Program-made: the position numbers and the translations under genes
DNA from: a virus
Lineage: Duplodnaviria; Heunggongvirae; Uroviricota; Caudoviricetes
DNA length: 9,056 nucleotides
IMG/VR virus record: IMGVR_UViG_3300029473_000092
Reading direction: 5' to 3' (one strand)
The notes under the pieces: generated by a model
Database searches by the model: none
The model's input: only the letters and a program-made list of their open reading frames with translations
Told to the model about the DNA's origin: nothing
Shown: piece by piece, positions 4,539 to 7,858 of the stretch
Position numbering within the stretch: position 1 is the first letter of the stretch
Layout: each line of letters starts with the position of its first letter

Positions 4539-4901
4539 ATGGCTAGTGAACGCAGTACTGATGTGCAGGCATTTATCGGGGAGCTGGACGGCGGCGTATT
4601 TGAAACCAAAATCGGCGCAGTTCTCAGTGAAGTCGCTTCCGGTGTGATGAACACGAAAACCAAAGGTAAGGTCTCACTCAACCTGGAAATCGAACCATTT
4701 GATGAGAACCGTGTGAAAATCAAACACAAACTCTCATATGTTCGCCCGACTAACCGTGGGAAAATTTCCGAAGAAGACACCACCGAAACGCCGATGTATG
4801 TCAATCGCGGTGGTCGCCTGACTATTCTGCAGGAAGACCAGGGACAATTACTGACTCTTGCCGGTGAGCCTGACGGAAAACTCCGCGCAGCAGGTCATTA
4901 A
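4539..4901 (+). CDS. yfdP: YfdP-like prophage protein (120 aa), function unknown
   Basis: ATG at 4539 with GAGGAG 8 nt upstream. The 120-aa length matches my memory of K-12 CPS-53 YfdP. The ORF-track N-terminal extension from TTG 4353 covers the structured RNA region and is unlikely to be translated. An alternative ATG lies at 4521. Confidence 0.7.
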   Translation: MASERSTDVQAFIGELDGGVFETKIGAVLSEVASGVMNTKTKGKVSLNLEIEPFDENRVKIKHKLSYVRPTNRGKISEEDTTETPMYVNRGGRLTILQEDQGQLLTLAGEPDGKLRAAGH

Positions 4902-4966
4902 TATCGTTCTTAATTAACTGATTATTTATCTCATCACTGAATATCTTAATATAGTGAGGACTTATT

Positions 4967-5791
4967 ATGTCTCAGAACTTAGACGCAACCGCAATTAATC
5001 AAATCCATGCCCTTATTTCTGCTCAGGGTGTTAATGAAATTATCAGTAAGATTGGTGCCGATGCTGTGGCATTGCCTGAGAATTTCCGCATTCATGATCT
5101 GGAAAAATTTAATTTAAATCGCTTCCGTTTCCGTGGTGCGCTTTCCACTGCCAGCATCGATGACTTTACCCGTTATTCTAAAGATCTTGCAGATGAAGGC
5201 ACCCGCTGCTTTATCGATGCTGATAATATGCGTGCCGTCAGTGTGCTTAACCTGGGTACTATTGATGAACCAGGTCACGCAGATAACACCGCCACTCTCA
5301 AACTGAAAAAGACAGCACCGTTCTCTGCCCTGTTGTCTGTTAACGGCGAGCGTAACTCCCAGAAATCACTGGCAGAATGGATTGAAGACTGGGCCGACTA
5401 CCTTGTGGGCTTTGATGCTAATGGTGACGCCATTCAGGCAACAAAAGCGGCTGCGGCAATCCGTAAAATCACGATTGAAGCAAACCAGACCGCTGATTTT
5501 GAAGATAATGACTTCAGCGGCAAACGCTCCCTGATGGAATCTGTCGAAGCGAAGACCAAAGACATTATGCCTGTGGCATTTGAATTTAAATGCGTTCCGT
5601 TTGAAGGTCTGAAAGAACGTCCGTTTAAATTACGCCTCAGCATTATCACTGGCGATCGTCCTGTACTGGTTCTGCGCATTATTCAGCTGGAAGCGGTGCA
5701 GGAAGATATGGCTAACGAATTTCGTGATCTGCTTGTTGAGAAATTCAAAGACAGCAAAGTAGAAACCTTTATTGGTACTTTCACCGCCTGA
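4967..5791 (+). CDS. yfdQ: YfdQ-like prophage protein (DUF2303 family), function unknown
   Basis: 274-aa ORF with ATG at 4967 and AGGA upstream. Length and gene context (between yfdP-like and HD-domain yfdR-like) match CPS-53 YfdQ as remembered. No catalytic motif recognised. Confidence 0.8.
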
Positions 5792-5803
5792 TTTCATTAC
5801 TGC

Positions 5804-5825
5804 AAATGCCCCTGCAGGGGCATTT
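5804..5825. repeat. 22-bp perfect palindrome / hairpin between the yfdQ-like and yfdR-like genes
   Basis: AAATGCCCCTGCAGGGGCATTT. As RNA this gives a 9-bp stem with a UGCA loop, A-rich upstream and U-rich downstream. Possible weak bidirectional terminator, attenuator or processing site. Confidence 0.4.
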
Positions 5826-5918
5826 ATGGAAACGTAATTAACTCAATAATCACCGGATGGTGAGGGCTTCCTTTTACCCAAATTCAGCGCGGTGCAGCGC
5901 ATATACGTGGAGAACAAA

Positions 5919-6467
5919 ATGTCATTTATTAAAACTTTTTCCGGGAAGCATTTTTATTATGACAGGATAAATAAAGACGACATCGTGATTAACGATATCG
6001 CGGTTTCCCTTTCAAATATCTGCCGCTTTGCCGGTCATCTTTCTCACTTCTACAGCGTCGCCCAACATGCGGTGCTTTGCAGCCAGCTGGTGCCGCAGGA
6101 ATTTGCTTTTGAAGCGTTAATGCATGATGCAACAGAAGCGTATTGCCAGGACATCCCCGCACCACTGAAACGCCTTCTTCCTGACTATAAACGGATGGAA
6201 GAAAAAATAGATGCAGTAATCCGTGAGAAATACGAGTTGCCCCCGGTTATGAGCACGCCTGTAAAATATGCCGATCTAATCATGCTGGCAACCGAACGCC
6301 GTGATCTCGGGCTTGATGATGGCTCTTTATGGCCTGTACTGGAAGGTATCCCGGCAACAGAGATGTTCAAAGTTATTCCACTGGCACCGGCCATGCCTAC
6401 GGGATGTTTATGGAACGCTTCAACGAGTTATCGGAATTACGCAAATGTGCATAACTCATGTAGTTAG
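5919..6467 (+). CDS. yfdR: HD-domain phosphohydrolase, YfdR-like 5'-deoxynucleotidase family
   Basis: ATG at 5919 with GGAGAA 5 nt upstream (the track's GTG at 5892 is less likely). HD signature present: histidines in CRFAGHLSHF…AQHAVL, then ALMHDATEAYCQDIP. About 182 aa, close to the 178 aa I recall for K-12 YfdR. Confidence 0.8.
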   Translation: MSFIKTFSGKHFYYDRINKDDIVINDIAVSLSNICRFAGHLSHFYSVAQHAVLCSQLVPQEFAFEALMHDATEAYCQDIPAPLKRLLPDYKRMEEKIDAVIREKYELPPVMSTPVKYADLIMLATERRDLGLDDGSLWPVLEGIPATEMFKVIPLAPAMPTGCLWNASTSYRNYANVHNSCS

Positions 6468-7323
6468 TTTTTCTGGCGGGAGAACATCCGCATATCTTGT
6501 TCACCTGATGGAAGAACAAAGAAAGGCTGGCAATAACGTCTGCTACATCTTTATGGATACCGGTTGCGAACATCCGCTGACATACCGCTTTATTCGGGAG
6601 GTTGTGAAGTTCTGGGGCATACCACTAACTGTGTTGCAGGTCGATATCAATCCTGAGCTTGGGCAGCCAAATGGTTATACAGAATGGGAGCCAAAGGATA
6701 TTCAGACGCGAATGCCGGTACTTAAACCGTTTATGGACATGGTTAAAAAGTACGGCACGCCATACATCGGTGGCGCGTTCTGTACTGACAGGCTAAAACT
6801 CATCCCTTTCACGAAATACTGCGATAACCATTTCGGGCGAGGTAATTACATCACATGGCTGGGTATTCGTGCAGACGAACCCCGTAGGCTGAAACCGAAA
6901 TCGGGCATCCGGTATCTTGCCGAACTGTCAGATTTTGATAAGTCGGATGTTATCCGGTGGTGGCGAAAACAACCTTTTGATTTGCAAATCCCGGAGCATC
7001 TCGGGAACTGTGTTTTCTGCATCAAAAAGTCAACGCAAAAGCTGGGGCTTGCATGTAAAGACGAACCTGGTCTGATGCGAGTTTTTAATGAGCTGGTTAC
7101 AGGCAAACACGTCAGGGATGGTCATCGCAGAACAGGTAAAGACGTTATGTACCGTGGTCACCTGACGCTTGACGGAATTGCCAGAATGTCTGCCAACAGC
7201 GACTACAGAAATTTGTATCAGGCGATGGTACAGGCCAGGCGATTCGATACCGGCTCGTGTTCAGAGTCATGTGAAATCTGGGGTGATCAATTGGAATTGA
7301 AATTCGAAGAGGTAGGGGTATGA
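6445..7323 (+). CDS. PP-loop ATP-pyrophosphatase-fold protein, PAPS-reductase-like / DndC-like family (phage type)
   Basis: N-terminal PP-loop SFSGGRTS nine residues after the proposed ATG at 6445. Arg-rich segment LGIRADEPRR and several Cys pairs (CVFC, CSESC) are consistent with PAPS-reductase-like enzymes. Overlaps the yfdR-like gene by 23 nt. The track's GTG at 6301 would overlap yfdR extensively and is rejected. Confidence 0.75.
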   Translation: MCITHVVSFSGGRTSAYLVHLMEEQRKAGNNVCYIFMDTGCEHPLTYRFIREVVKFWGIPLTVLQVDINPELGQPNGYTEWEPKDIQTRMPVLKPFMDMVKKYGTPYIGGAFCTDRLKLIPFTKYCDNHFGRGNYITWLGIRADEPRRLKPKSGIRYLAELSDFDKSDVIRWWRKQPFDLQIPEHLGNCVFCIKKSTQKLGLACKDEPGLMRVFNELVTGKHVRDGHRRTGKDVMYRGHLTLDGIARMSANSDYRNLYQAMVQARRFDTGSCSESCEIWGDQLELKFEEVGV

Positions 7324-7667
7324 CAAACGAAATTAACTACCATGCACTGCTTGAGCGCGCACGGAATAAAGTGCAGAGCATTGAGTTCGCCTTAACACAG
7401 AGTGCATTCGCTGAGATTCGCGCTGAGCTTGAAGATGATTTAGAACTGGCACGGATTGCACTGGCATCTCTGGAAGTTGAGCCAGATGAACGCGCAGCCT
7501 ATGAATTATTTATGGAAAAGCGTTTCGGTAAAACAGTCGATCGTCGGAGAGCAAAAAACGGTGATAACGAGTACATGGCGTGGGATATGGCTCTCGGCTG
7601 GGTCGTCTGGAAACAACGCGCTGGCATGAGTCTTTCAACTGCACAACCACAGGAGGGTCAACAATGA
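7320..7667 (+). CDS. Hypothetical phage protein (115 aa), acidic and helical-looking
   Basis: ATG overlaps the upstream stop (ATGA at 7320-7323) and its stop overlaps the xis-like start (ATGA at 7664-7667). No recognisable motif. Confidence 0.6.
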   Translation: MTNEINYHALLERARNKVQSIEFALTQSAFAEIRAELEDDLELARIALASLEVEPDERAAYELFMEKRFGKTVDRRRAKNGDNEYMAWDMALGWVVWKQRAGMSLSTAQPQEGQQ

Positions 7668-7858
7668 ACAACTTAATGACAACAAAACAAGTCGCCGAAT
7701 TCTGTGGCGTTTCAATATCGACGGTGCTTCGCTGGAACAGTGTAAACCGGAGGACTGGTCAGAAATATCGGCCTGATTTTCCAGATCCTGATATTAAATC
7801 CTGCCCAAATAAATGGGCATCACGTAAGATATACAGGTTTGCAGGAGTAATTGAGTAA
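7664..7858 (+). CDS. Excisionase / AlpA-like winged-helix recombination directionality factor (Xis/TorI-like)
   Basis: 64 aa. ATG at 7664 with AGGAGGG 7-13 nt upstream. Motif TTKQVAEFCGVSISTVLRWN resembles the Xis/AlpA pattern (…S..TV.RW). Sits at the operon end next to a terminator, as TorI sits at the KplE1 end. The track's upstream start at 7580 is rejected. Confidence 0.7.
   Translation: MNNLMTTKQVAEFCGVSISTVLRWNSVNRRTGQKYRPDFPDPDIKSCPNKWASRKIYRFAGVIE

Follow-up and report, generated by a model that had tools for sequence, protein, structure and literature searches.

When an HD-type phosphohydrolase and a PP-loop enzyme are encoded side by side in the early region of a prophage, the question arises whether the two act in one pathway or were brought together as separate pieces. 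Here the question is raised by a stretch of viral DNA of 9,056 nucleotides (IMG/VR record IMGVR_UViG_3300029473_000092, Caudoviricetes), the whole of which is called the window in what follows. A preliminary description, made from the letters alone, had placed six co-directional genes at positions 4539-7858 and had read them as an early-left operon combining the two enzymes with three unknowns in a module for nucleotide-pool manipulation or nucleic-acid modification. The open reading frames (ORFs) do occupy exactly these coordinates on the plus strand and correspond, in order, to yfdP, yfdQ, yfdR (the HD-domain gene), a gene of the lambda NinC (Orf290) family (the PP-loop gene), a yfdT-like gene and an excisionase gene. 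We consider it probable that the region is an accessory early-left operon of a CPS-53/mEp460/SfV-type lambdoid Escherichia coli (E. coli) prophage, put together as a mosaic of independently exchanged cassettes and not as one pathway. As such the locus, a recombinant form of a prophage operon that is known, widespread and already annotated, is largely ordinary. Its main value lies in a sharper hypothesis for lambda NinC, which has been an orphan gene for 40 years, since three pointers lead from it to restriction evasion, namely the conservation of the PP-loop and of five cysteines, fusions to adenine methyltransferases and a 55%-identical homologue connected with escape from Dnd. Dnd or Ssp systems are carried by many E. 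coli strains.

The conservation of the pairing was examined with a junction probe of 601 bp across yfdR-to-NinC (at least 80% covered) and an equivalent yfdR-to-yfdS probe from K-12, both searched in 5,426 complete E. coli genomes. The yfdR-to-NinC junction was found in 283 of them and the yfdR-to-yfdS junction in 2,280. At 80 IMG/VR loci with the closest YfdR, the downstream gene was of the YfdS type in 62 cases and NinC in 17. On choosing loci by NinC instead, yfdR was present upstream in 63 of 80 IMG/VR loci whose NinC is at least 93% identical. The last count, together with the 283 genomes, could be taken to favour a two-enzyme module, in which the HD phosphohydrolase and the PP-loop enzyme (for example nucleotide-pool editing feeding a modification) form a dedicated defence or anti-defence system with the unknowns as accessory subunits, and the start of NinC does overlap the yfdR stop, which suggests translational coupling. 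But the sharing is among relatives at least 93% identical and reflects recent common descent, and yfdS has the same overlapping start in the 2,280 genomes. Since the ATG of NinC and that of yfdS both overlap the yfdR stop, the point of exchange coincides exactly with the boundary between the genes, and it is the slot, not NinC, to which translational coupling belongs. The NinC-family gene fills a slot that is held by the unrelated yfdS in most relatives.

NinC is also found apart from yfdR, which tells further against such a module. Lambda, which has no yfdR, carries it between ninB and ninD in the nin region driven by pR. In Salmonella phage Oslo, ninC comes after a DNA methyltransferase gene (Dam-ninC). 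Stx2a-converting phages and Ss-VASD carry a 93%-identical NinC in the early-left region, again without yfdR, in the order gam-recT-exo-ssb, divergent yfdP, a DUF2303 gene, an unrelated 147-aa gene and NinC. Among the 77 NinC loci examined, 69 are more distant (30-81% identity), and no homologue of YfdP, YfdQ or YfdR occurs in these within about 4 kb. Around 60 of the 69, the flanking ORFs (113 in all) were surveyed with Pfam; these immediate neighbours included replication initiators, DnaB helicases, NinB, NinG, C5 and Dam methylases, dUTPase and nucleases, with no HD family among the families listed. From the other side, yfdP, yfdQ and yfdR stay together and diverge in parallel, at 53-67% identity, in Klebsiella, Serratia, Salmonella phage 118970_sal3 and E. 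coli phage Flotzy, and none of these distant trios has NinC. It may be added that a search for YfdQ loci by alignment gave only 99-100% identical copies, and the diversity was taken from contigs encoding distant homologues. Also, PADLOC matched no complete defence system among seven proteins (the six operon genes and a 268-aa minus-strand ORF at 8144-8950). A module of the two enzymes is therefore very improbable in our view. The HD/PP-loop pairing is not a conserved unit in these comparisons, and what co-diverges as a unit across Enterobacterales is yfdP-yfdQ-yfdR. Thus the functional pair put forward in the preliminary description fails on co-conservation, and what survives of its idea of modification or anti-defence attaches to the PP-loop protein alone, by way of the methyltransferase fusions and a gene swap in Vibrio phages described below.

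The PP-loop protein may next be taken by itself. Its gene (6445..7323, plus strand) encodes a PP-loop ATP-pyrophosphatase-like protein of 292 aa of the lambda NinC family, annotated as 'PAPS reductase domain' (phrog_424, E=7.9e-92; PF01507, E=1e-8). A translated search of phage genomes gave 79% identity to lambda NinC (Orf290) over 285 of the 292 residues of the window protein. The motifs noticed at the outset are all present, that is, an SFSGGRTS loop and the cysteine pairs GNCVFC and CSESCE. The family has 1,650 representatives at E<=1e-3, and conservation was read from an alignment of 51 sequences with identity down to 29%. Invariant in it are S10, G12 and S15 of the PP-loop, G40 and E42, C113 and K118, the residues G140, R142, D144, E145 and R148 of a GIRADEPxR motif, G187, N188, C189 and K195 of GNCxxCxKK (with C192 conserved in at least 90%), and C272 and C276 of the C-terminal CSESCE. 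The window protein carries every invariant column. With these residues retained, NinC looks active; it is an enzyme under constraint and no relic.

The annotation as a PAPS reductase invites a different reading, whereby the protein is a CysH-type PAPS/APS reductase, an auxiliary metabolic gene of sulfate assimilation that boosts host cysteine synthesis. Such an annotation is frequent in phage genome papers, and besides the Pfam match to PF01507 the fold appears to agree: the AF2 model (pLDDT 91.6) has a PP-loop fold whose nearest solved folds are CysH, APS reductases, LarE, NcsA and GMP synthetase, at TM 0.3-0.5. But where CysH has SSSFG the protein has the ATP-type loop SFSGGRTS, and the C-terminal catalytic motif ECG[LI]H is absent, with CSESCE in its place. 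The likeness to reductases is also distant (Foldseek TM 0.36-0.5 at 15-22% identity; phmmer matches over residues 4-70 only, E 3e-4 to 1e-2), NinC is fused to DNA methyltransferases, and its neighbours are replication and recombination genes. Sulfur metabolism of the CysH type was thus ruled out on motif grounds, and we give this reading hardly any weight, the least of all those considered. The same fold matches include the tRNA thiolase NcsA and LarE, and the CxxC and CxxxC pairs recall the sites that bind Fe-S or Zn in tRNA thiolases, so that NinC could be an RNA modifier of the thiolase or lysidine type. Alternatively it could be a phage recombination or replication factor, given the NinB, NinG, DnaB-type helicases and replication initiators that neighbour its homologues. 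Such neighbours may reflect the common layout of phage early regions, and independent fusions to two adenine methyltransferase families together with the anti-Dnd gene swap point to DNA and to restriction evasion. A role of either kind is unlikely, though less so than the reductase.

The evidence for a DNA-directed function is as follows. The NinC domain is found fused to a PF05869 Dam domain at its N- or C-terminus, and also to a PF02086 D12-class methyltransferase. That is, two unrelated families of N6-adenine DNA methyltransferase are involved, in both orders and repeatedly. In the nearest relative prophage, a separate PF05869 Dam gene lies about 450 bp to the left of the window. One such NinC-Dam fusion is p0018 (P0082) of Vibrio phage 44E38.1, which is 55% identical to the window protein over 283 aa. 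When p0018 and p0019 were moved together into a sensitive phage, this phage became able to infect a Dnd+ host (Piel et al., bioRxiv 10.1101/2021.05.05.442762), and p0018 is cited elsewhere in this sense, as a phage PAPS reductase promoting Dnd evasion. DndC, SspD and BrxP are in turn the PAPS-reductase-domain enzymes of DNA phosphorothioation (PMC12914056). In PADLOC, the best match of NinC is to SspD (E=3.7e-15, restricted to residues 5-150 in the N-terminal half), and the matches to DndC and BrxP are marginal. On account of the constrained PP-loop and cysteines, the methyltransferase fusions, the 55%-identical homologue in Dnd escape and the SspD match, NinC is most likely, by analogy with these proteins, a PP-loop enzyme that acts on DNA and, by modifying it, helps the phage to evade restriction. 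With its ATP-type PP-loop (SGGxxS) and five family-conserved cysteines it would adenylate a substrate and, much as DndC or SspD do, pass sulfur or a different nucleophile to DNA, either jointly with phage adenine methyltransferases or in parallel to them. The phage DNA would in this way be shielded from host restriction of the modification-dependent kind, for example Dnd.

The partner in the earlier proposal, yfdR (5919..6467, plus strand), encodes an HD-domain 5'-deoxynucleotidase and DnaA-binding protein (phrog_318, E=2e-108; PDB 2GZ4, E=9e-12). The HD motif that had been seen in the sequence is real, with the metal-binding residues H50, H69-D70, E73, D78 and D119 kept and aligning to those of the HD protein Atu1052 (PDB 2GZ4). 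In comparison with a 99.9%-identical relative, one G has been lost from the GGG run at 6387-6389 (GGG to GG, at 6389). As a result, YfdR agrees with the relative through residue 157 and its last 21 residues (158-178), GHAYGMFMERFNELSELRKCA, are replaced by 25 unrelated ones. The C-terminal helix lost in this way is conserved out to Agrobacterium Atu1052 (PDB 2GZ4). The deletion allele was found in none of 58 related viral loci and in none of the 2,226 complete E. coli genomes holding the segment, and it is either a private mutation or a sequencing error. A frameshifted gene raises the possibility that the block is prophage cargo in decay that no longer functions in this strain, the more so as CPS-53 of K-12 is a cryptic remnant and the deletion of yfdQRST there has no phenotype in normal growth. 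But over 8,969 bases only seven substitutions and one indel separate the window from an apparently complete prophage, NinC has kept all the invariants of its family, and a single-base deletion in a G-run may be an error of sequencing. We hold decay to be quite improbable.

As regards function, the preliminary description knew of none assigned to this module in prophages, which is at variance with the literature. The genes yfdQ-yfdR-yfdS-yfdT were reported as a multicopy suppressor of replication over-initiation (Noguchi & Katayama 2016, PMC4776307). In that work, overexpressed yfdQRS or yfdQRT inhibited initiation at oriC, and purified YfdR bound DnaA via Phe46 of domain I and competed with DiaA and DnaB. 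YfdR was described as structurally homologous to the 5'-deoxynucleotidase YfbR but as having a much lower affinity for nucleotides (PMC4776307). The yfdP-yfdQ-yfdR cluster has also been described as common in lambdoid early-left operons (PMC12315714). Of the yfdQRST cluster, the window has a 100% identical yfdQ, a frameshifted yfdR and a yfdT-like gene, and yfdS is absent; it may be noted that yfdQRT suffices in PMC4776307. In the mosaic that we propose, yfdP-yfdQ-yfdR is the conserved core, with YfdR a 5'-deoxynucleotidase that also binds domain I of DnaA, and the likely role of the core in the phage would be takeover of host replication. A role of yfdPQR in recombination was considered and rejected; it is judged unlikely in PMC12315714 too.

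A number of points weigh against these interpretations. For the core, yfdR is frameshifted in the window, the authors of the yfdQRST study warn that replication is affected on overexpression and that this could be an artefact, and deletion of yfdQRST is without effect under normal growth (PMC4776307). For the independence of the cassettes, the translational coupling at the yfdR-NinC junction and its stability in 63 of the 80 close relatives make some functional interplay conceivable. For NinC, the lambda protein is dispensable in the laboratory, poorly understood and has no known partner. In the Vibrio work, two genes were swapped jointly and the protein is a Dam fusion, so that the share of the PAPS domain was not isolated (bioRxiv 10.1101/2021.05.05.442762). 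The anti-restriction phenotype comes from the Vibrio homologue, and the role of coliphage NinC would follow from it by analogy. Furthermore, known phosphorothioation requires a partner NTPase, which is DndD, SspC or BrxC (PMC12914056), and neither such an NTPase nor a recognition or nicking partner was found in the window or in a 21.7-kb relative locus. As a tentative and rather doubtful extension, members of the NinC family (including lambda Orf290) may be single-polypeptide DNA modifiers that write a phosphorothioate or other PP-loop-dependent mark together with phage Dam and host sulfur donors. The DNA would then look like 'self' to Dnd or Ssp, and the coupling to YfdR, a dNMP phosphatase, would in the present lineage add clearing of nucleotides.

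The remaining genes of the operon are less informative. The gene yfdP (4539..4901, plus strand) encodes a protein of 120 aa and unknown function, with 99.2% identity to K-12 YfdP (phrog_204, E=1e-49). Homologues of YfdP carry the Pfam domain PF27127 'YfdP'. The PDB sequence search, NCBIfam and PADLOC gave no match for YfdP or for the 115-aa protein, and the window YfdP has none in Pfam. The gene yfdQ (4967..5791, plus strand) encodes a DUF2303 protein of 274 aa (PF10065, E=4e-93) that is 100% identical to K-12 YfdQ. A structure of a homologue (E=2e-44) is deposited as PDB 9O7M with 36 chains of 'YfdQ Protein', a number that implies a large assembly; a literature search returned no paper on this entry. 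A DUF2303 protein is virion-associated in Burkholderia phage JC1 (PMC9144972). The structure model predicted here has no informative fold relatives, and nothing mechanistic was found in the literature for YfdP or YfdQ. The 115-aa protein (7320..7667, plus strand), whose function is unknown, is a homologue of YfdT (72% identity to K-12 YfdT over 79 aa; phrog_660, E=7.5e-22). The 64-aa gene (7664..7858, plus strand) is no unknown but encodes a helix-turn-helix (HTH) excisionase (phrog_1553, E=2.3e-35, over residues 1-64, its full length). The small size, the HTH, the full-length homology and the place near the integration module all agree with an excisionase, for which HTH_17 and MerR matches are weak and the RefSeq relative has no annotation of the gene. 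The yfdT-like gene and the excisionase close the operon.

In the relative prophage, the integrase lies about 2 kb beyond the excisionase. Between the two there is a gene of low GC content (32-38%) on the minus strand (8144-9056), which is cut by the end of the window. It is complete in a related locus (L001, 12846-14099, minus strand), where it encodes 417 aa, belongs to phrog_30399 of unknown function and has no Pfam or PADLOC match. By where it lies and by its composition it would suit a moron or a candidate defence gene.

Of secondary interest is a conserved structured leader RNA upstream of yfdP (4340..4538, plus strand). It contains a hairpin at 4357-4397 followed by a U-run, a long hairpin at 4398-4494 and a third hairpin at 4503-4520. 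The leader of about 200 nt, in which an inverted repeat was noted, is far more stably folded than shuffled sequence (z-score -5.4), the stem before the U-run having 13 bp and the long hairpin 25 bp. In Salmonella and E. coli phages the long hairpin is conserved at about 82%, and four of its base pairs show compensatory change among four phages. In Salmonella phage F1055 the leader stands before another first gene. It has no match in Rfam, and K-12 is without it. It may be an undescribed regulatory RNA, acting in antitermination or processing in N-less lambdoid early-left operons.

The surroundings of the block are those of a prophage. The window matches a prophage of E. coli APEC E16002 that adjoins yjjG at 99.9% identity over 8,969 bases, with 7 substitutions and 1 indel. 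This relative is an apparently complete prophage with repressor, replication genes, Q, int and xis. In 99.9%-identical E. coli prophages, the RefSeq labels are yfdP, yfdQ, yfdR, PAPS-reductase-domain protein and DNA-binding protein. Encoded on the minus strand of the window are cro-like, cII-like (Phage_CP76) and Rha-family genes as well as genes of the replication region. On the plus strand, a cI-type repressor (HTH and S24 peptidase; 3124..3816; Pfam Peptidase_S24, E=6.5e-19, HTH_3/HTH_26; an XRE family regulator in the RefSeq relative) stands upstream of the six-gene block in the same direction of transcription. The block thus lies between the cI-like repressor and the prophage end with the integrase, and the early-left position given to it at first was correct. 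Its stops and starts had been described as overlapping or nearly so, and overlap is confined to the last three junctions: yfdR and ninC share 23 nt in the window, against 10 nt in relatives with an intact yfdR, while the ninC/115-aa and 115-aa/64-aa genes overlap by 4 nt each (ATGA). The first two junctions are gaps of 65 nt (yfdP-yfdQ) and 127 nt (yfdQ-yfdR). Inside the latter there is a small GC hairpin, GCCCCTGCAGGGGC, at 5809-5826 on the plus strand, which might divide the operon in two, as a weak internal terminator or as an element of RNA stability.

As regards signals of transcription, a terminator scan gave terminator-like hairpins on the plus strand after cI (3837..3854) and at the end of the operon (7917..7942, a 10-bp stem followed by a T-rich tail). 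A pattern search found two perfect TTGC-N7-GCAA palindromes at 3872-3886 and 3896-3910 (plus strand), shortly after the cI terminator, which are putative OL operators of the early-left promoter. The same pattern is present in the cI-cro intergenic region, perfect at 3089-3103 and with one mismatch at 3041-3055, and the palindromes are likely the OL and OR operators of this immunity type. No promoter was found on the plus strand by a simple sigma-70 scan, nor was an N-like ORF evident between cI and yfdP. On the minus strand, Rfam gave matches to the C4 antisense RNA (83.6 bits) and to the isrK Hfq-binding RNA (67 bits), at 1677-1764 and 1789-1865. Both sit within a 383-aa ORF (1074-2225) labelled 'Rha family phage regulatory protein' in RefSeq, and because of them the N-terminal half of this ORF is probably non-coding. 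The C4/isrK locus resembles the c4/ant immunity module of the P1 type.

The window may finally be set beside the systems that it recalls. One is CPS-53 (KpLE1) of K-12, whose order yfdP-yfdQ-yfdR-yfdS-yfdT-(ypdJ)-torI matches that of the window, as does the position beside the excisionase, with identities of 100% for YfdQ, 99.2% for YfdP, about 97% for YfdR (intact allele) and 72% over 79 aa for the YfdT-like protein. They differ in that yfdS (DUF551) is replaced in the window by the 292-aa NinC-family gene, the excisionase is of another type than TorI, yfdR is frameshifted, and a structured leader is present upstream where K-12 has none. With DndC, SspD and BrxP, the NinC protein appears to share a PP-loop domain of the PAPS-reductase superfamily with a loop of the ATP type, but the similarity is limited to about 150 N-terminal residues, and the Dnd, Ssp and BREX type 4 systems require partners for phosphorothioation (the NTPases DndD, SspC or BrxC, and DndE or SspB) that are not encoded near the window NinC. 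With p0018 of Vibrio phage 44E38.1, the 55% identity extends across the whole NinC domain and the PP-loop, GNCVFC and CSESCE are shared; p0018 has a C-terminal Dam domain, whereas the window NinC stands alone and a Dam gene is found elsewhere in the related prophage. With lambda NinC (Orf290) itself, the protein has 79% identity over 285 aa, equal length and all family-invariant residues in common. The lambda gene lies between ninB and ninD in the nin region, which is part of the pR operon and lies between the replication genes and Q, whereas the window copy lies outside such a region, early-left, between yfdR and the yfdT-like gene. Since the 93%-identical copies of Stx2a phages are also early-left, a nin location is not essential to the NinC family.

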